Assembly: GCF_003019035.1 (NCBI RefSeq)
Contig: NZ_CP027447.1
Reading direction: 5' to 3' (one strand)
DNA: 64,000 nucleotides
DNA from: Escherichia coli
GTDB taxonomy: Bacteria > Pseudomonadota > Gammaproteobacteria > Enterobacterales > Enterobacteriaceae
The position numbers and the translations under genes were made by a program. The notes under the pieces are model-generated. The model did no database searches, was not told the origin of the DNA, and was given only the letters and a program-made list of their open reading frames with translations. Each line of letters starts with the position of its first letter. The first letter of the stretch is position 1. Positions 1,134 through 52,158 of the stretch are shown piece after piece.

Positions 1134-2969
1134 GTGAAACGACTACAATCATTAAAAGAAGCAAAAACAAAACCAGACTTGGCTAAGCTATTAGGAATCA
1201 AACCTTCAGCGTTAACATACTGCCTATATGTATTAAAACCTGAAAATCAATACACACAGTTTAAGATACCAAAAAAAAATGGCGGCGAACGGATAATAAG
1301 TGCACCTAACGGAATATTAAAGACGATACAGTCATCCTTATCAAGACTGCTTCTAGATTGCTTAGACGAAATAGTTTGCATTAAGTTTCCAGACTCAGAG
1401 TTAGCAAGGCAGAAAGCAAAAAACTCAAAAATATTAAAGTTAAAATGTTCCAACTCAGAAATCAAACAACCCTCACTGTCTCATGGATTTGAAAGAAAGC
1501 GTTCAATTATTACAAATGCAATGATGCACTTGGGGAAAAAATATGTTTTTAATATAGACTTGGATAATTTTTTCGGCAGTTTTAACTTTGGTAGAGTCCG
1601 AGGTTTTTTCATAAAAAATAGAAACTTTGCACTCGATCCGGAAATCGCAACTGTAATTGCTAAAATTGCGTGCTACAACAATGAACTACCCCAAGGCAGC
1701 CCATGCTCCCCAGTAATCACTAATCTAATCACTCACTCGTTAGACATTAAACTGGCAGCGATTGCATCAAGAAACTCATCCACTTTTACAAGATATGCTG
1801 ATGATATTACATTCTCTACGAGGAAGGGGGAGTTTCCTTCTGCTATAGCAAAAAATCAAAATGGTAAATATATCGTTAGTAAGAAAATTAGGGGCGAGAT
1901 AACTCGCTCAGGTTTTATAATTAATGATGGGAAGACAAGAAATCAGTATAAAGACTCGAGGCAAGATGTAACAGGCTTAGTGGTTAATAAAAAGCCAAAC
2001 ACGAAAAAAGAATATTGGAGGCTTGTGCGTGCGCAATGTGACCATTTATTTAAACATGGTGAGTTCTTAGAGGTGATTGACGGCAAGGAAATAAAGGGGA
2101 ATGTTAATACCCTTGCAGGCAAACTTAACTTCATAGACCAAGTTGACCACTATAATAGATTGCGTCAAGGCGAAAAATTAAATCCAAAATATCACTTAAA
2201 AAAAGATGCCAATAAAAATGGCCATGCCAAAAAAAGGCGTTACTTACATAGTTCTAGAGAAAAAACGTTTAGTGAGTTTCTCTTCTATCGTTTATTTTAT
2301 GGCAATGAATTACCAACAATTCTTACGGAAGGTAAAACTGACAATATTTATCTGAAGGCAGCAATACATAAGTTAGCCTCATCATTCCCTAATTTGGCGG
2401 TCGCTGAAAGTCCAGGGCTCTCTTATAAGCCACGGACTAAATTTGTTAACTACAATGAGCGGACAAAATATTTACTTGAACTTTATGGTGGTGCTGATTA
2501 TTTAAAGGATTTTGTTATTCATTATAAACAACACTTTAATCGTTATAAGGCTCCCAAACCATCTAATCCAGTAATTATACTTGTTGATAATGATAGCGGA
2601 CCAAAAGATCTGATTAATTACGTTAGTAAAGTTGATAATATTGGTATTTTCCCCACAGGTGTTCCAGATATCCGCGCCTCTGAGTTTGTACATATTTTTT
2701 GTAATCTTTATTTAGTGCTTACCCCTCAAGTTAAGGGATATACAGGAACTGATATAGAGCATTTTTTTAAAGATGCAGATCGACTTAGACCACATAAAGG
2801 TAAGTTTTTCAATACAGTCTCTAAGCGTGATCATGATAATGATTTGAGCAAGGAATCTTTCGCAACTCATATTGTTCATGCCCACAAGCATGAAATTGAT
2901 TTTAGTGGATTTACAAGCCTGTTAGAACGGTTAGTAAAAGTCATAAATCACTTTGACACTGTTAAGTAA
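1134..2969 (+). CDS. Retron-type reverse transcriptase fused to C-terminal TOPRIM-like domain (611 aa)
   Basis: GTG start with GAGG 9 nt upstream. RT motifs: KKNGGERIISAP (aa 47-58), NAxxH as ITNAMMH (aa 126-132), IDLDNFF (aa 141-147), LPQGSPCSP (aa 185-193), YADD (aa 221-224, nt 1794-1805), VTG (aa 280-282). C-terminus: ILTEGKTD (E399, nt 2328-2330) and ILVDNDSGP (D485/D487, nt 2586-2594), the Glu plus DxD pattern of TOPRIM. Visibly AT-rich relative to flanking core genes. Confidence 0.8.
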   Translation: MKRLQSLKEAKTKPDLAKLLGIKPSALTYCLYVLKPENQYTQFKIPKKNGGERIISAPNGILKTIQSSLSRLLLDCLDEIVCIKFPDSELARQKAKNSKILKLKCSNSEIKQPSLSHGFERKRSIITNAMMHLGKKYVFNIDLDNFFGSFNFGRVRGFFIKNRNFALDPEIATVIAKIACYNNELPQGSPCSPVITNLITHSLDIKLAAIASRNSSTFTRYADDITFSTRKGEFPSAIAKNQNGKYIVSKKIRGEITRSGFIINDGKTRNQYKDSRQDVTGLVVNKKPNTKKEYWRLVRAQCDHLFKHGEFLEVIDGKEIKGNVNTLAGKLNFIDQVDHYNRLRQGEKLNPKYHLKKDANKNGHAKKRRYLHSSREKTFSEFLFYRLFYGNELPTILTEGKTDNIYLKAAIHKLASSFPNLAVAESPGLSYKPRTKFVNYNERTKYLLELYGGADYLKDFVIHYKQHFNRYKAPKPSNPVIILVDNDSGPKDLINYVSKVDNIGIFPTGVPDIRASEFVHIFCNLYLVLTPQVKGYTGTDIEHFFKDADRLRPHKGKFFNTVSKRDHDNDLSKESFATHIVHAHKHEIDFSGFTSLLERLVKVINHFDTVK

Positions 2970-3197
2970 TATTATGATGCGCACTGATTATTCCTTATTC
3001 AGCTAAAATTTCTACTGTAGTCCCAACTTCCGTTCCTCGCTCATAACAGACATTCACTACAGTTATGGTAGAAGGTATGCATGCTGGGTGGGGAAAGTAT
3101 GAAGGAAAAGAAGACTGCTGCGCCGTTTGTTGTCACATTTATCTTCATTGGCTATGCAAGTCGTAATACAAGGTGGGACAAAACTGAGACACATAAG

Positions 3198-3230
3198 GCC
3201 TCGCAATGACTTGCAAGGCTTTACATGTTT
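3198..3230 (+). terminator. Possible intrinsic terminator downstream of the RT gene
   Basis: Imperfect hairpin GCCTCGCAA/TTGCAAGGC (3198-3219, loop TGAC) followed by a T-rich stretch. Confidence 0.25.
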
Positions 3231-3298
3231 TGATGTGGTGGGACGTGTGAGCGCAGTGTTGATGGGGTAATGCTTTGAATTAGAAGCGGATTCTTATA

Positions 3299-3344
3299 AT
3301 TCGTAATGCGAAGGTCGTAGGTTCGACTCCTATTATCGGCACCA
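3299..3344 (+). pseudogene. thrW: 3' fragment (46 nt) of tRNA-Thr(CGU) thrW; island att junction
   Basis: ATTCGTAATGCGAAGGTCGTAGGTTCGACTCCTATTATCGGCACCA matches the anticodon loop (CGT), T-arm and acceptor 3' strand with CCA of thrW as I recall it. The 5' half (GCCGATATAGCTCAG...) is absent, so this is not an intact tRNA gene. Confidence 0.7.
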
Positions 3345-3707
3345 TTTAAATCAATAAGTTATCTCACATTTAAGTAAACTACGTTCTCCTCTTGTGCCTT
3401 TGATTTTGCTCGCGTGCGCGGTGAAATGCCTGACTGAAAGGTGAGCATATCGACGAACCATTTCGAGAGTTTCCCATCTGCTCATTTTTAAGTGCAAGCA
3501 GGAAAACACCGGACTAAACCAATCAGCTGTTCGAAAATGGCAAGCGGATTAATATGCCATGGCGGGGCAGCTTTGAGCCGCACGCATGGGGTGTGGCAAG
3601 CCTGATGGATTTTGCTGTGCCTGTGGTGGCGTGTTTGCTGGTTTGGCTGTTGGTTAAACGCGAAAGTCATAATGCCAGGGGAATACCGCAGGGTGTTCAG
3701 GTTTTGC

Positions 3708-45750: not shown

Positions 45751-46614
45751 GTGTGGTCGCTAACTGCGGATGCTGATTTTCTGGCGCAGCGGGGGCAAGG
45801 ACAGGTTGAACAGGTCTTTGCCAGAGCGGTAAATATCGCACTTCCGGCCCGCCAGCAGTTGCTGACGCTGCTTTGTGAAGAGTACGACAATGCGCCAAAC
45901 AGTTGTCGGTTGGCACTCACTCACTTTAATGGTCTGTTCCGGCATGGTGATAAGGTTCAGTTTGACGATCAAGGCATTACGGTTGGTCAACATCTTCATA
46001 TAGAGATGAGTCATTGCCAGCGTTGGCTGTCCCCAACCTTGCAAATGACCGCTGTGAATTTTCACCTTATCGTCTGGCAACAGTGGCATGACATTATTCA
46101 TCAGCACCTGGGGGAAAATGAAACCCTGTTTAATTATTGCGGCGATAATCCGTTTTATCAGGCGTTAAATAAAGAATTACATATTAAACGACGGGCAGTT
46201 ATTCAGGCCGTAAACGATAAACAAAATATCGCCTCAGCAGTCGCCAGTATGATGGGCTTAGGGATTGGCCTTACGCCATCAGCCGACGATTATTTAACAG
46301 GTCTGGCGCTTATTTTATTTATTTCCGGACATCCGGCGGAAAAATACAAAGAGGAATTTTATCTCGGTCTGCAACGCGGCAGAAATAATACCACGTTATT
46401 AAGTGCCATAACGCTGGAAGCCGCATTACAACAACGCTGCCGGGAAAATATTCATCGTTTTATTCATAACATTATTTATGACATCCCTGGGAACGCAACT
46501 CAGGCAATAGAAAAAATTAAACATATTGGCTCCAGTTCCGGCTGCGACATGCTGTATGGCATGGCCGATGGTTGTGCGCTGAGCCAAACCTACGGAGGGA
46601 ATTATGTCAGTTAA
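45751..46614 (+). CDS. yahE: YahE (DUF2877)
   Basis: 287-aa ORF in conserved yahEFG order. Confidence 0.8.
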   Translation: MWSLTADADFLAQRGQGQVEQVFARAVNIALPARQQLLTLLCEEYDNAPNSCRLALTHFNGLFRHGDKVQFDDQGITVGQHLHIEMSHCQRWLSPTLQMTAVNFHLIVWQQWHDIIHQHLGENETLFNYCGDNPFYQALNKELHIKRRAVIQAVNDKQNIASAVASMMGLGIGLTPSADDYLTGLALILFISGHPAEKYKEEFYLGLQRGRNNTTLLSAITLEAALQQRCRENIHRFIHNIIYDIPGNATQAIEKIKHIGSSSGCDMLYGMADGCALSQTYGGNYVS

Positions 46615-48151
46615 AATAGTCATTAAACCGAATACCTATTTTGATTCTGTCTCGCTGATGTCTATCTCTACGCGTGCAAATAAACTCGACGGCGTCGAGC
46701 AGGCATTTGTGGCGATGGCGACCGAAATGAACAAAGGCGTACTGAAGAATTTAGGGCTGCTGACGCCGGAGCTGGAGCAGGCGAAAAACGGCGACCTGAT
46801 GATTGTCATCAACGGCAAAGCGGGCGCAGACAACGAGCAGTTGCTGGTGGAGATTGAAGAACTGTTCAACACCAAAGCGCAAAGCGGCTCGCACGAGGCG
46901 CGTTACGCCACTATTGCCAGCGCCAAAAAGCATATCCCGGAAAGTAACCTGGCAGTGATTTCGGTCAACGGTCTGTTTGCCGCTCGCGAAGCGCGTCAGG
47001 CGCTGCAAAATGATCTTAACGTGATGCTGTTTTCCGATAACGTCTCGGTTGAAGATGAACTGGCGCTCAAACAGTTGGCCCATGAAAAAGGGCTGCTGCT
47101 GATGGGGCCAGACTGCGGCACGGCGATTATCAACGGCGCGGCGCTCTGCTTTGGTAACGCCGTGCGTCGCGGCAACATCGGTATTGTTGGCGCATCCGGC
47201 ACCGGTAGCCAGGAACTGAGCGTCCGTATCCATGAATTTGGCGGCGGCGTTTCGCAACTGATTGGCACCGGTGGGCGCGACCTGAGCGAGAAAATCGGCG
47301 GCCTGATGATGTTCGACGCCATCGGGATGCTGGAAAACGATCCGCAAACTGAAATCATTGTGCTTATCTCCAAACCGCCTGCGCCTGCGGTGGCCCGCAA
47401 AGTGCTGGAACGCGCACGTGCCTGCCGCAAGCCGGTGGTGGTCTGCTTCCTCGGTCGTGGCGAAACGCCAGTGGATGAGCAAGGGCTACAGTTTGCTCGC
47501 GGCAGCAAAGAGGCGGCGCTGAAAGCGGTAATGCTCTCCGGCGTGAAACAGGAACATCTCGATCTGCATACCCTGAACCAGCCATTGATTGCTGACGTGC
47601 GCGCTCGCCTGAAGCCGCAACAGAAATACATTCGTGGCCTGTTCTGCGGAGGTACGCTGTGTGACGAAACCATGTTCGCGGTGATGGAAAAACACGGCGA
47701 TGTCTACAGCAACATCCAGCCCGATCCTGAATTCCGCCTGAAAGATATCAACCGCAGCGTCAAACATACCTTCCTCGACTTTGGCGATGACGATTTTACC
47801 AACGGCAAGCCGCATCCAATGATTGACCCCACCAACCGTATCAGCCGCTTGATCGAAGAGGCGCGCGATCCAGAAGTGGCGGTGATCGTGATGGATTTTG
47901 TGCTCGGGTTTGGATCGCATGAAGATCCGGTCGGTTCCACCATCGAGGCGATCAAAGAGGCGAAAGCGAACGCCGCTGCCGAAGGACGTGAGTTGATCAT
48001 TCTCGCCTATGTGCTGGGTACCGATCTTGATACGCCATCATTAGAACAACAAAGCCAGATGCTGCTTGATGCCGGAGTGATTCTGGCGAGCAGCAGCACC
48101 AATACCGGATTGCTGGCGCGTGAATTTATCTGCAAAGGGGAGGAAGCCTGA
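46604..48151 (+). CDS. yahF: FdrA-like CoA-binding protein YahF
   Basis: 515-aa ORF resembling succinyl-CoA synthetase alpha-type proteins. Confidence 0.85.
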   Translation: MSVKIVIKPNTYFDSVSLMSISTRANKLDGVEQAFVAMATEMNKGVLKNLGLLTPELEQAKNGDLMIVINGKAGADNEQLLVEIEELFNTKAQSGSHEARYATIASAKKHIPESNLAVISVNGLFAAREARQALQNDLNVMLFSDNVSVEDELALKQLAHEKGLLLMGPDCGTAIINGAALCFGNAVRRGNIGIVGASGTGSQELSVRIHEFGGGVSQLIGTGGRDLSEKIGGLMMFDAIGMLENDPQTEIIVLISKPPAPAVARKVLERARACRKPVVVCFLGRGETPVDEQGLQFARGSKEAALKAVMLSGVKQEHLDLHTLNQPLIADVRARLKPQQKYIRGLFCGGTLCDETMFAVMEKHGDVYSNIQPDPEFRLKDINRSVKHTFLDFGDDDFTNGKPHPMIDPTNRISRLIEEARDPEVAVIVMDFVLGFGSHEDPVGSTIEAIKEAKANAAAEGRELIILAYVLGTDLDTPSLEQQSQMLLDAGVILASSSTNTGLLAREFICKGEEA

Positions 48152-49569
48152 TGAGCCAGTCACTGTTTAGCCAACCGTTGAACGTTATTAACGTCGGCAT
48201 CGCCATGTTTAGCGATGATCTGAAAAAGCAGCATGTAGAAGTGACCCAACTCGACTGGACGCCGCCGGGGCAGGGCAATATGCAGGTGGTGCAGGCGCTG
48301 GACAACATTGCCGATTCGCCGCTGGCAGACAAAATCGCCGCCGCTAACCAGCAGGCGCTGGAACGCATTATCCAGTCGCATCCGGTGCTGATTGGTTTTG
48401 ATCAGGCGATTAATGTGGTGCCGGGCATGACGGCGAAAACCATTCTTCACGCCGGGCCGCCGGTCACCTGGGAAAAAATGTGCGGCGCGATGAAAGGCGC
48501 GGTCACCGGGGCGCTGGTGTTCGAAGGACTGGCGAAAGATCTCGACGAGGCGGCTGAACTGGCGGCTTCCGGGGAGATCACCTTCTCGCCGTGCCACGAG
48601 CATGACTGCGTGGGATCGATGGCGGGCGTCACCTCGGCCTCGATGTTTATGCACATCGTGAAAAACACAACCTACGGCAACATCGCTTACACCAACATGA
48701 GCGAGCAGATGGCGAAGATTTTGCGTATGGGCGCCAACGATCAGAGCGTGATTGACCGCCTCAACTGGATGCGTGATGTGCAGGGGCCAATGCTGCGCGA
48801 CGCGATGAAAATTATCGGCGAAATCGATCTGCGCTTAATGCTGGCGCAGGCGCTGCACATGGGCGATGAGTGCCATAACCGCAATAACGCCGGGACGACG
48901 CTGCTGATTCAGGCGCTGACACCGGGGATTATTCAGGCAGGTTATTCCGTCGAACAACAGCGCGAAGTGTTTGAGTTTGTCGCCAGCAGCGACTACTTCT
49001 CCGGCCCGACGTGGATGGCGATGTGTAAAGCGGCGATGGATGCGGCGCACGGCATCGAATACAGCACCGTGGTGACCACCATGGCGCGTAACGGCGTCGA
49101 GTTCGGCCTGCGGGTCAGCGGCCTGCCGGGGCAATGGTTTACCGGCCCGGCGCAGCAGGTGATCGGCCCGATGTTTGCCGGTTATAAGCCGGAAGATTCG
49201 GGGCTGGATATCGGCGACAGCGCCATCACAGAAACCTACGGTATTGGTGGATTTGCCATGGCGACCGCGCCTGCAATCGTCGCGCTGGTAGGCGGTACGG
49301 TGGAAGAGGCTATCGATTTCTCCCGCCAGATGCGTGAAATCACTCTCGGTGAAAACCCCAACGTCACCATTCCGCTGCTCGGTTTTATGGGCGTGCCGTC
49401 GGCAATCGACATCACCCGCGTGGGCAGCAGCGGCATTCTGCCGGTGATCAACACCGCCATCGCCCATAAAGATGCGGGCGTCGGCATGATTGGTGCGGGC
49501 ATTGTGCATCCCCCCTTCGCCTGCTTCGAGAAAGCCATTCTTGGCTGGTGCGAACGTTACGGCGTCTGA
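48151..49569 (+). CDS. yahG: YahG (DUF1116)
   Basis: 472-aa ORF overlapping the yahF stop. Confidence 0.85.
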   Translation: MSQSLFSQPLNVINVGIAMFSDDLKKQHVEVTQLDWTPPGQGNMQVVQALDNIADSPLADKIAAANQQALERIIQSHPVLIGFDQAINVVPGMTAKTILHAGPPVTWEKMCGAMKGAVTGALVFEGLAKDLDEAAELAASGEITFSPCHEHDCVGSMAGVTSASMFMHIVKNTTYGNIAYTNMSEQMAKILRMGANDQSVIDRLNWMRDVQGPMLRDAMKIIGEIDLRLMLAQALHMGDECHNRNNAGTTLLIQALTPGIIQAGYSVEQQREVFEFVASSDYFSGPTWMAMCKAAMDAAHGIEYSTVVTTMARNGVEFGLRVSGLPGQWFTGPAQQVIGPMFAGYKPEDSGLDIGDSAITETYGIGGFAMATAPAIVALVGGTVEEAIDFSRQMREITLGENPNVTIPLLGFMGVPSAIDITRVGSSGILPVINTAIAHKDAGVGMIGAGIVHPPFACFEKAILGWCERYGV

Positions 49570-49592
49570 CCTGCAAAGTGCGCGTTGTCTCT

Positions 49593-49766
49593 GCCGGATG
49601 CGGCGTGAACGCCTTATCCGGCCTACGGATGGCGCAAGAATCTGTAGGCCTGATAAGCGTAGCGCATCAGGCATTTGTCACCATTGCCGGTTGCGGCGTG
49701 AACGCCTTATCCGGCCTACGAGTGGCGCAAGAATTTGTAGGCCTGATAAGCGTAGCGCATCAGGCA
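49593..49766. repeat. Tandem REP/BIME elements between yahG and yahI
   Basis: Two near-identical ~80-bp units (49593-49672, 49687-49766), each an inverted pair of REP-like sequences (GCCGGATGCGGCGTGAACGCCTTATCCGGCCTAC ... GTAGGCCTGATAAGCGTAGCGCATCAGGC). Confidence 0.8.
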
Positions 49767-49815
49767 ATTTGGCATTGGTCATAACCCCATCACCCTCTGT
49801 AGCGGACATAACAAC

Positions 49816-50766
49816 ATGAAAGAGCTTGTGGTCGTTGCCATTGGTGGCAACAGCATTATCAAAGATAACGCCAGCCAGTCGATTGAGCATCAGGCGGAGG
49901 CGGTGAAAGCCGTCGCCGATACGGTGCTGGAAATGCTGGCTTCCGATTACGACATTGTGCTGACCCACGGCAACGGGCCGCAGGTCGGGCTGGATTTACG
50001 CCGTGCGGAGATTGCCCACGAGCGCGAAGGGCTGCCCTTAACGCCGCTGGCGAACTGTGTGGCGGATACGCAAGGCGGCATTGGCTATCTGATCCAGCAG
50101 GCGCTGAATAACCGGCTGGCGCGTCACGGCGAGAAAAAAGCCGTCACCGTGGTGACTCAGGTGGAAGTGGATAAAAACGATCCGGGGTTTGCCCATCCCA
50201 CCAAGCCCATCGGCGCATTCTTTAGTGAAAGCCAGCGTGACGAACTACAAAAGGCAAACCCTGACTGGCGTTTTGTTGAAGATGCCGGACGTGGCTATCG
50301 CCGCGTGGTCGCCTCGCCGGAACCGAAACGTATTGTCGAAGCACCTGCCATTAAGGCGCTGATCCAACAAGGTTTTGTGGTGATTGGCGCGGGCGGCGGT
50401 GGAATTCCGGTAGTGCGTACTGAAGCGGGGGATTACCAAAGCGTGGACGCGGTTATCGACAAAGATCTCTCTACCGCGCTATTGGCCCGTGAAATTCACG
50501 CCGACATTCTGGTGATCACCACTGGCGTCGAAAAAGTGTGTATTCACTTTGGCAAACCGCAGCAGCAGGTGCTGGATCGGGTGGATATTGCCACCATGAC
50601 CCGCTATATGCAGGAAGGGCATTTCCCACCCGGCAGCATGTTGCCAAAAATCATCGCCAGCCTGACGTTCCTGGAGCAGGGCGGTAAAGAAGTGATTATC
50701 ACCACGCCGGAATGCCTGCCTGCGGCGCTGCGCGGTGAAACGGGCACCCATATTATTAAAACGTAA
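49816..50766 (+). CDS. yahI: Carbamate kinase-like protein YahI
   Basis: 316-aa ORF with carbamate kinase-like N-terminus (VVVAIGGNSI). Confidence 0.85.
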   Translation: MKELVVVAIGGNSIIKDNASQSIEHQAEAVKAVADTVLEMLASDYDIVLTHGNGPQVGLDLRRAEIAHEREGLPLTPLANCVADTQGGIGYLIQQALNNRLARHGEKKAVTVVTQVEVDKNDPGFAHPTKPIGAFFSESQRDELQKANPDWRFVEDAGRGYRRVVASPEPKRIVEAPAIKALIQQGFVVIGAGGGGIPVVRTEAGDYQSVDAVIDKDLSTALLAREIHADILVITTGVEKVCIHFGKPQQQVLDRVDIATMTRYMQEGHFPPGSMLPKIIASLTFLEQGGKEVIITTPECLPAALRGETGTHIIKT

Positions 50767-50775
50767 GGACGTAAG

Positions 50776-52158
50776 ATGAAAGAAAACAATAGCCGCCGTG
50801 AATTTCTGAGCCAGAGCGGTAAGATGGTCACCGCCGCCGCGCTGTTTGGTACGTCTGTGCCGCTCGCCCATGCGGCAGTCTCTGGCACAACCCATTGCGA
50901 CGCGAATAACACCATGAAAATCACTGACCCGCATTACTATCTCGAAAACGTGCTGCTGGAAACCGGTTTTGACTACGAAAATGGCGTGGCGGTGCAGACC
51001 CGCACGGCGCGCCAGACTGTGGAAATTCAGAACGGCAAAATTGTTGCACTGCGCGAGAACAATCAGCATCCGGACGCCACGCTGCCGCACTATGACGCTG
51101 GCGGTAAGCTGATGCTGCCCACCACCCGCGACATGCATATTCATCTCGACAAAACCTTCTACGGCGGGCCGTGGCGCTCGCTCAATCGTCCGGCAGGCAC
51201 CACCATCCAGGACATGATTAAGCTTGAGCAGAAAATGCTGCCGGAACTGCAACCGTACACGCAGGAACGGGCGGAAAAACTGATCGATTTATTGCAGTCG
51301 AAAGGCACCACCATTGCCCGCAGCCACTGCAATATCGAACCGGTTTCCGGCCTGAAAAATCTGCAAAATTTGCAGGCGGTGCTGGCGCGACGTCAGGCGG
51401 GCTTCGAGTGTGAAATCGTCGCCTTCCCGCAGCACGGTTTGCTGCTGTCGAAATCGGAACCCTTAATGCGTGAAGCAATGCAGGCGGGCGCGCATTACGT
51501 CGGCGGTCTGGACCCGACCAGTGTTGATGGCGCGATGGAAAAATCCCTCGACACCATGTTCCAGATTGCCCTTGACTATGACAAAGGCGTCGATATTCAC
51601 CTGCACGAAACCACTCCGGCAGGCGTGGCAGCTATCAATTATATGGTTGAAACGGTAGAGAAAACGCCGCAACTGAAGGGCAAGCTGACCATCAGCCACG
51701 CCTTCGCGCTGGCAACGCTCAACGAACAACAGGTAGATGAACTGGCGCACCGGATGGCGGCGCAGCAAATTTCTATCGCCTCGACGGTGCCGATTGGCAC
51801 GCTGCATATGCCGCTCAAACAGTTGCACGACAAAGGCGTAAAAGTCATGACCGGCACCGACAGCGTTATCGACCACTGGTCTCCCTACGGCCTGGGCGAC
51901 ATGCTGGAAAAAGCCAATCTGTACGCGCAGCTCTATATTCGTCCTAACGAACAGAATTTGTCCCGTTCGCTGTTTTTAGCCACTGGCGATGTATTGCCGC
52001 TCAACGAAAAAGGCGAGCGCGTGTGGCCCAAAGCGCAGGATGACGCCAGCTTTGTGCTGGTGGACGCCTCCTGTTCCGCCGAGGCGGTGGCGCGTATCTC
52101 GCCGAGAACCGCAACGTTCCATAAAGGGCAACTGGTGTGGGGGAGTGTGGCAGGTTGA
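50776..52158 (+). CDS. yahJ: Amidohydrolase/deaminase YahJ
   Basis: 460-aa ORF with Tat-like N-terminus (RREFLSQSG) and metal-dependent amidohydrolase fold motifs. Confidence 0.85.
   Translation: MKENNSRREFLSQSGKMVTAAALFGTSVPLAHAAVSGTTHCDANNTMKITDPHYYLENVLLETGFDYENGVAVQTRTARQTVEIQNGKIVALRENNQHPDATLPHYDAGGKLMLPTTRDMHIHLDKTFYGGPWRSLNRPAGTTIQDMIKLEQKMLPELQPYTQERAEKLIDLLQSKGTTIARSHCNIEPVSGLKNLQNLQAVLARRQAGFECEIVAFPQHGLLLSKSEPLMREAMQAGAHYVGGLDPTSVDGAMEKSLDTMFQIALDYDKGVDIHLHETTPAGVAAINYMVETVEKTPQLKGKLTISHAFALATLNEQQVDELAHRMAAQQISIASTVPIGTLHMPLKQLHDKGVKVMTGTDSVIDHWSPYGLGDMLEKANLYAQLYIRPNEQNLSRSLFLATGDVLPLNEKGERVWPKAQDDASFVLVDASCSAEAVARISPRTATFHKGQLVWGSVAG

Follow-up and report, generated by a model that had tools for sequence, protein, structure and literature searches.

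The repeat array between yahG and yahI on this Escherichia coli chromosome is of a known kind and occupies a known site, REP23/yahH, present here as a two-unit allele. Its most likely function, as suggested by analogy with REP325, would be that of an intercistronic RNA hairpin, which stabilises the upstream mRNA and partly attenuates read-through. We consider it probable, without placing high confidence in it, that the full explanation combines an identity as an atypical BIME, gain and loss of repeat units, and a hairpin role in the mRNA. The sole mildly new point is a conserved 'hairpin slot', which is found at this position across genera and has genus-specific occupants.

Layout and class of the array

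E. coli SCU-301, from which the names yahG and yahI were taken, has 100% identity to the 64-kb stretch of DNA analysed here (the window). The product of yahG, whose TGA stop codon lies at 49567-49569, is an AllG-family subunit of an oxamate-carbamoyltransferase-like enzyme. The genes yahDEFG and yahIJ have a common coding strand and are closely packed: yahE/yahF and yahF/yahG overlap or abut, and yahI and yahJ are separated by a gap of 9 nt.

REPs of E. coli are imperfect palindromes that lie outside genes, measure 30-40 nt, and have a GTAG/CTAC next to them. A repeat search identified, within 49592-49769, a tandem pair of 85-nt units with a period of 93 and 94% identity (49592-49676 and 49685-49769), and Tandem Repeats Finder reported an array at 49592-49771 with a period of 93, 1.9 copies, 94% matches, and a score of 325. 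By direct reading and a motif scan, every unit was resolved into a Y REP and an oppositely oriented Z REP, and the order of the array is Y(iREP), 17 nt, Z1(REP), 13 nt, Y(iREP), 17 nt, Z1(REP) (Table 1). The Y REP has the sequence GCCGGATGCGGCGTGAACGCCTTATCCGGCCTAC, with CTAC at its 3' end on the + strand, and the Z REP has the sequence GTAGGCCTGATAAGCGTAGCGCATCAGGC. In the motif scan, the Y REPs carried the Y-tail 17-mer exactly and the Y-head 13-mer with 0-1 mismatch; the A-to-T change at 49691 in the second Y REP places a U-U mismatch within the stem. When the whole 64 kb were scanned by Hamming distance for the full Y-tail 17-mer and the full Z-tail 14-mer, only the four sites of the array were found, which excludes a chance match for these REPs. 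The first-pass annotation had described two near-identical inverted REP pairs in tandem between yahG and yahI, at 49593-49766. The repeat search, Tandem Repeats Finder, and the motif scan all bear this out, the limits agree to the base with our reading of the sequence, and the alternating orientation of the REPs supports the naming of the element as a BIME.

Table 1. Coordinates of the array, its parts, the flanking genes and the overlapping reading frames, in window positions.
Feature	Coordinates	Strand	Details and source
yahG	48151..49569	+	ORF list; SCU-301 annotation; Pfam PF06545 AllG, E = 1.1e-88
YahH-frame ORF (…GCGVNALSGLR…)	49548..49784	+	'hypothetical protein' in SCU-301; K-12 yahH frame
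Leader, yahG stop to first REP	49570..49592	+	23 nt, CCTGCAAAGTGCGCGTTGTCTCT; sequence and allele comparison
Y REP, unit 1	49593..49626	-	GTAG-first on the minus strand; mRNA has the iREP form ending in CTAC
X002-frame ORF (MRRERLIRPT…)	49598..49819	+	EHEC 'X002' frame; ATGA overlap with yahI start
Tail-to-tail linker, unit 1	49627..49643	.	GGATGGCGCAAGAATCT, 17 nt, S-like
Z1 REP, unit 1	49644..49672	+	29 nt, GTAG-first on the + strand
Head-to-head linker	49673..49685	.	ATTTGTCACCATT, 13 nt, joins units 1 and 2
Y REP, unit 2	49686..49719	-	A-to-T at 49691 (GCCGGTTG)
Tail-to-tail linker, unit 2	49720..49736	.	GAGTGGCGCAAGAATTT
Z1 REP, unit 2	49737..49765	+	29 nt, identical to Z1 of unit 1
yahI leader	49776..49815	+	…CATAACCCCATCACCCTCTGTAGCGGACATAACAAC, kept across genera (16-species alignment)
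yahI	49816..50766	+	carbamate-kinase-like; Pfam AA_kinase; SCU-301 annotation
yahJ	50776-52158		amidohydrolase, 9 nt after yahI

The length of the Z REP decides its type. Published REP lengths are 35 nt for y, 29 nt for z1, and 37 nt for z2 (PMC8266576), and the Z units of the array match the short Z, with 29 nt including GTAG; because Z2 measures 36-37 nt, they are assigned to Z1. A long Z, GCCTGATGCGACGCTTGCGCGTCTTATCAGGCCTAC, is present in the REP325 sequence, and the same long Z is found in the BIME-2s that flank rayT, which consist of Y + Z2 (PMC2817692). That the array Z might be Z2, which would make the array a BIME-2, was considered and ruled out by the 29-nt Z in view of the published lengths (PMC8266576) and of the REP325 and rayT-flank sequences.

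In the literature, BIME-1 is a single Y + Z1 pair with a long L linker, which often holds an IHF site, BIME-2 consists of Y + Z2 repeated in tandem and separated by short linkers, and atypical BIMEs, usually multicopy, combine Y, Z1, and Z2 in other ways, with any of the linkers S, s, l, r, and L (PMC3333891; PMC1187871). The present array differs from BIME-1 in its two tandem pairs, of which there are up to five in other strains, and in its 17-nt linker. It resembles BIME-2 in its tandem copies, short linkers, and variable copy number, but not in composition, which is not Y + Z2. Because it is a tandem of Y + Z1 with short linkers and without an IHF consensus, the array is an atypical BIME with a BIME-2-like architecture under the Bachellier classification. 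Its linkers have counterparts in REP325: at 12 of 17 bases, as counted by eye, the tail-to-tail linker agrees with the reverse-complemented tail-to-tail spacer of REP325, and in the Rfam alignment the head-to-head linker falls on the 'l' linker of REP325/naRNA4. The motif scan also showed that the array REPs have the GTAG and the hairpin that are a feature of REPs recognised by RayT; a RayT gene was sought within the 64-kb stretch and was not found.

Variation of the site within E. coli and among species

Neuhaus et al. 2016 treated this locus as REP23/yahH/X002 and remarked that yahH had been taken out of the annotation for being a REP element (PMC4765031). REP23/yahH of K-12 and X002 of EHEC EDL933 have the same chromosomal site, the same flanking genes, and the same Y/Z1 93-bp unit as the present array. 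The alleles differ in unit number, which is two in the present array, four in K-12 MG1655 (period 93, 3.9 copies, located beneath the annotated ORF yahH), and five in O157. They differ as well in the leader that separates the first REP from the yahG stop, which measures 23 nt here and 13 nt in K-12 and O157, and the ORFs that span the array end elsewhere in the present array than in REP23/yahH/X002.

A comparison of copy number across strains, which had been suggested beforehand, was carried out by searching 5,426 complete E. coli genomes with the flanks alone. Rows were taken at even ranking steps, which gave two spread samples with 57 chromosomes in each (114 rows, with a few records common to both), and representative alleles were inspected at single-base level. 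The site varies from 0 to 5 units. One unit was found in 52 of the 114 rows (46%) and four units in 34 (30%), followed by no unit in 12 (about 10%), five units in 8 (7%), two units in 5 (4%), and three units in 3 (3%). Two of the five two-unit rows are the present strain itself, and the two-unit array is a rare allele of the yahG-yahI site. The differences in span among the sampled E. coli are all multiples of the 92-93-nt unit. Query coverage was unusable for counting units across the 5,426 genomes, as one-unit genomes reach 98% because the BLAST pieces of both query units join on the single unit of the subject.

Of the two leader haplotypes, the 23-nt one of the present strain was detected in at least 642 genomes and the REP-less allele, as a single copy, in at least 164; these counts, obtained with allele-specific queries, are lower bounds because megablast requires an exact 28-nt word. 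At the position of the array, the REP-less allele holds an unrelated hairpin, CCTTCTCCCTTTTGGGGAGAAGG, with a folding energy of -17.6 kcal/mol. Six alleles together provided 15 units, in which Z1 was identical in 15/15 and the Y stems were almost invariant, and the variation consisted of substitutions and 1-nt indels located mostly in the two linkers. The genome NZ_CP010441.1, labelled K-12 MG1655, has exactly one 93-bp unit fewer than the reference, which reflects either a rapid change or a collapse in the assembly. The duplication probably arose by in-register gain or loss of 93-bp units through replication slippage or unequal recombination, and RayT, the REP-associated transposase, may assist in this process.

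The occupancy of the same site in other species was surveyed by searching species-representative genomes for a degenerate motif of the yahI start, which retrieved 64 loci, 17 of them with yahG directly upstream. A strong GC-rich palindrome follows the yahG stop in 17/17 of these other enterobacterial species. In E. albertii, E. whittamii, and two Pseudocitrobacter assemblies it is a Y/Z1 BIME, and the remaining genera have different GC-rich palindromes, which begin 1-10 nt past the yahG stop. These include the pairs GGGAGAGGG…GGGTGAGGGG in Klebsiella and several Kluyvera, the pair GTAGCCCGGG…CCGGGCTAC in Kluyvera ascorbata and K. sichuanensis, CCCCGGCC… in Raoultella, and CCCCGGC…GCCGGGG, then a T-rich stretch, in Citrobacter. 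Three of the motifs recur elsewhere within the retrieved loci, which hints that they may be members of dispersed families. About 40 nt before the yahI ATG are conserved across genera in the alignment of 16 species, and because this conserved leader bounds the right side, the BIME sits in a defined variable slot. It is conceivable, and we propose it only tentatively, that the slot after the yahG stop is selected to hold a stable stem-loop and is filled independently by the REP-like families of each genus, with E. coli tuning it through BIME copy number. The recurrent palindromes could instead reflect a permissive or preferred landing site, without selection for a hairpin.

Proposed role in the yah transcript and competing readings

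The RNA of the 241-nt region folds with -104 kcal/mol (z = -3.55), an energy matched by 0/200 shuffles. The Y REP hairpin reaches -21.3 kcal/mol (z = -4.9) and the Z1 hairpin -11.5 kcal/mol, and RNA folds of the whole units have -42.4 and -36.9 kcal/mol. The interval 49400-49950 was searched on both strands for an intrinsic terminator, defined as a GC-rich hairpin directly followed by a U run, and none was found; nor was a promoter-like site for yahI found on its + strand. Given that both signatures are missing there, the array is more probably leaky and internal to an operon than a true operon boundary, for which the first-pass annotation had allowed as well. A yahDEFGIJ operon was also suggested by Neuhaus et al. 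2016 (PMC4765031).

Under the proposed mechanism, the array would be transcribed inside a polycistronic yahD-J message, since yahDEFG and yahIJ are co-stranded and lack an intervening promoter-like site or intrinsic terminator. Each unit of the RNA could then form either two REP hairpins, of about -21 and -11 kcal/mol, or a single hairpin of about 80 nt with -37 to -42 kcal/mol. The REP hairpins would block 3'-to-5' exonucleases, and it is through this block that the upstream yahDEFG segment is proposed to be stabilised. At the same time, about 250 nt of untranslated structured RNA may cause partial, partly Rho-dependent termination ahead of yahIJ. The net outcome would be a raised ratio of upstream to downstream expression, set by the number of units. 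Any such dosage effect appears to be dispensable, since about 10% of the sampled E. coli have no REPs at the site and copy number ranges from 0 to 5.

Experimental precedent for this reading comes from REP325, which was shown to stabilise upstream mRNA and to reduce downstream expression, partly via Rho (preprint 10.64898/2026.03.23.713779). Deletion of REP325 at its native locus raised expression of the downstream gene about 8-10-fold and lowered that of the upstream gene about 3-fold, and genome-wide, tandem gene pairs that contain REPs have higher upstream/downstream expression ratios (10.64898/2026.03.23.713779). By this analogy, the reading of the first-pass annotation, in which such an element stabilises mRNA and forms an operon boundary or attenuator, is plausible for the locus; among the mechanisms considered it has the strongest backing, and it agrees with the layout of the site. 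The same work found REP effects to be context-dependent, with half-lives not uniformly altered (10.64898/2026.03.23.713779). A further effect depends on the distance from the stop codon: as summarised in PMC12306157, Liang, Rudd and Deutscher 2015 reported that REPs located no more than 15 nt past a stop codon stall terminating ribosomes. The first REP of the present array, with its 23-nt gap, lies outside this range, whereas the 13-nt gap of K-12-type alleles lies inside it.

A possible alternative, though one that we rate below an even chance by a clear measure, is that the array is a neutral selfish or passenger repeat, with a slot that tolerates insertions, or REPs that home to hairpins or 3' ends, and copy number drifting by slippage while yah expression is unaffected. 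Neutrality would fit a copy number that spans 0 to 5 without any one state dominating, as well as the existence of a REP-less allele, and unrelated palindromes in each genus are expected if each genus's own REP family colonises the slot; moreover, REPs are viewed as non-autonomous elements mobilised by RayT (PMC2817692; PMC8266576). It is harder to reconcile with the retention of a strong hairpin after the yahG stop in 17/17 species and in every E. coli allele examined, since a hairpin is present even in the REP-less allele (-17.6 kcal/mol) and, short and single, in Citrobacter. REP stems are also far better conserved than linkers, and measurable effects are known for REP325. Another alternative, which we consider improbable, is that the array is translated, either into a small repetitive protein (YahH/X002) or for a cis effect in which the ATGA overlap could couple translation to yahI and melt the hairpins. 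Ribosome footprints were reported on X002/yahH in EHEC (PMC4765031), two forward frames remain open across the array, the ATGA overlap is shared by both of the two-unit alleles examined, and translation of a BIME abolishes Rho-dependent attenuation according to Espeli 2001, as cited in PMC4765031. Against translation stand the lengths, C-termini, and stop positions relative to yahI of these ORFs, which vary among alleles; the ORF is cut short where there is one unit and missing where there is none. Because 1-nt indels between units shift the frame, the 'proteins' of the array are chimeric. There is no Shine-Dalgarno-like sequence before the ATG at 49598, a protein-family search with the REP-derived ORFs gave no match above the cut-off, and PGAP calls these ORFs inconsistently among strains. 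Structured RNA may also survive RNase digestion and mimic ribosome footprints. The REP-derived ORFs are therefore judged, from these sequence features, to be by-products of the repeat rather than a conserved gene, and the overlap that in two-unit alleles may let array translation couple to yahI is treated as a curiosity.

The remaining readings assign the array a role as DNA or as a separate RNA. The first-pass annotation had named gyrase and IHF as proteins that bind such elements. The gyrase part is plausible for the Y units, given that gyrase cuts mainly Y units (PMC6379681), and the array has two canonical ones; the literature behind the claim concerns BIME-2, that is Y + Z2, while the array is Y + Z1. 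That the Y REPs are strong, transcription-independent gyrase sites which give the array a role in topology, as a supercoil sink or insulator, is rather unlikely in our estimate, although such a role would be compatible with the RNA role. BIME-2 is enriched in gyrase cleavage sites, with Y cut much more often than Z2 (PMC6379681), but the published evidence comes from Y + Z2 arrays, of which only a subset is cleaved (PMC6379681), the yah cluster is not known as highly transcribed, and zero-unit strains exist. Entries for yahG, yahH, and yahI are absent from the accessible part of the supplementary gyrase cleavage data of PMC6379681. The IHF part is not supported. In BIME-1/RIB elements, the long L linker is where IHF sites are located (PMC3333891), the tail-to-tail linker here has 17 nt, and the consensus WATCARNNNNTTR has zero matches in the intergenic region 49570-49815. 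The Y + Z1 composition does match BIME-1, but with a short linker in place of the long L linker, and with tandem copies where BIME-1 is single, an IHF-binding RIB/BIME-1 element is extremely improbable. We regard as very improbable, too, a naRNA4-like gene for an HU-binding RNA that organises the nucleoid. It would account for the sole Rfam match, to RF02564 at 49647-49716 on the minus strand, which reaches 72.1 bits where the gathering score is 59.5. However, the RF02564 model describes one generic Y-linker-Z BIME junction, and the above-threshold match is antisense to the yah genes, the best match falling on the minus strand because the array is oriented opposite to REP325 relative to transcription. 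The match on the sense strand, with 49.0 bits, stays below the threshold of 59.5, the alignment has a 7-nt deletion in its Z half (Z1 versus Z2), and REP325/naRNA4 itself had no measurable effect on nucleoid compaction (10.64898/2026.03.23.713779).

Relation to known BIMEs and significance

REP325, located between yjdM and yjdN and the source of naRNA4 (RF02564), likewise consists of tandem Y + Z pairs between co-oriented genes, with head-to-head ('l') and tail-to-tail linkers related to those of the present array, and it is the best experimental model of a dual function as stabiliser and attenuator. It is a BIME-2 with Z2 (36-37 nt), a period of about 100 nt, and six units, whereas the present array has Z1 (29 nt), a period of 93 nt, and two units, and its orientation relative to transcription is the opposite. 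The analogy between the two is imperfect because of the Y/Z1 composition and the opposite orientation of the present array. The BIME-1/RIB/RIP elements share with it the inverted Y + Z1 pair, but they occur singly and have a long, conserved L linker in which an IHF site lies, both features being absent here. The BIME-2s of the rayT flanks and of sucC-sucB share tandem copies, short linkers, strain-variable copy number, and a Y that can be cut by gyrase, and they differ by having Z2 instead of Z1.

REP/BIME arrays and their copy-number polymorphism are already in the literature, and the consequences for this locus concern annotation and its use as a model. The 'hypothetical protein' at 49548-49784, and 'YahH' elsewhere, would be better regarded as by-products of the repeat, and the proper label would be an atypical Y/Z1 BIME, neither an IHF-binding BIME-1 nor a classic BIME-2. 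With alleles of 0, 1, 2, 3, 4, and 5 units and leaders that straddle the 15-nt limit, the locus is a potential natural allelic series, which could relate REP number and stop-codon distance to mRNA stability, Rho-dependent polarity, and translation.

Should the slot after yahG prove to be selected for a stem-loop that each genus fills in its own way, REP/BIME arrays would be interchangeable 'plug-in' intercistronic regulators, which here would set the ratio of expression between yahEFG (carbamoyltransferase-like) and yahIJ (carbamate kinase/amidohydrolase).

Gene context of the yahG-yahI BIME

Together, the genes that flank the BIME are paralogous to the anaerobic branch of allantoin metabolism, and the BIME lies between a carbamoyltransferase-like module and a kinase/amidohydrolase module.

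Window positions and assignments of the yah gene products and of the yahI leader
Feature	Assignment	Position
YahE	AllH	within 45751-52158
YahF	FdrA/AllF-like CoA ligase	within 45751-52158
YahG	AllG	within 45751-52158
yahI leader	last ~40 nt before the yahI ATG	49776-49815
YahI	carbamate-kinase-like	within 45751-52158, after YahG
YahJ	amidohydrolase	within 45751-52158, after YahI

Gain, loss and absence of BIME units

In the yahG-yahI spacer of Escherichia albertii NBRC 107761, a tandem duplication of 162 bp was found; the duplicated segment takes in the end of yahG (~45 nt), the leader of 23 nt that precedes the first REP, and one BIME unit. The two units of E. albertii arose by a different route from those of E. 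coli, where the 93-bp unit itself was duplicated. Copy number also differs between two records of K-12: NZ_CP010441.1, labelled K-12 MG1655, carries three units versus four in the reference NC_000913.3, exactly one 93-bp unit being absent, in register, which reflects either a change on a laboratory time scale or an assembly collapse.

An allele without REPs, in which the spacer measures 95 nt, was present in about 10% of the sampled E. coli chromosomes and is represented by loci L003 and L008. Where the BIME sits in other alleles, it has an unrelated hairpin, CCTTCTCCCTTTTGGGGAGAAGG. This REP-less allele occurs in one copy per genome in at least 164 genomes.

Variant BIMEs and their hosts

The one-unit allele of E. 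coli CREC-591 has two substitutions in the inner Y REP stem, one changing GGCG into GGTG and the other CGCC into CGCT. These convert two G-C pairs into G-U wobbles in the plus-strand RNA and would give A-C mismatches on the opposite strand, a small hint that stem pairing in the Y REP may matter on the transcribed strand.

E. coli-type Y/Z BIMEs were also detected in two non-Escherichia assemblies, Pseudocitrobacter faecalis (L016) and a Pseudocitrobacter MAG, in both of which the YahG C-terminus shares 99-100% identity with the E. coli protein. In L016, the first unit carries the long Z2 REP and the second Y is degenerate. The E. coli-type BIMEs together with the near-identical YahG C-terminus suggest that the yah region was transferred horizontally, or else point to contamination or mis-binning.

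Sequences of yahI and its leader

In E. coli GON1437 (L008, positions 1855-3357), yahI is truncated by a Mu-like prophage, with genes of the Mor activator, gp16 and Gp27 families, inserted in its 5' part. Separately, the E. coli genome searches returned about 120 plasmid records that lack the yahG flank but carry a sequence 97-98% identical to the beginning (5' part) of yahI; its annotation on the plasmids is carbamate kinase family protein.

Among loci L015-L075, the yahI leader (ending in CATAACCCCATCACCCTCTGTAGCGGACATAACAAC) is conserved in Escherichia, Citrobacter, Klebsiella, Kluyvera, Raoultella, and Enterobacter, and the sequence 5' of it is genus-specific throughout. The leader contains no canonical Shine-Dalgarno sequence and has no Rfam match. 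For yahI, this conserved segment may act as an element of translation initiation or of regulation.
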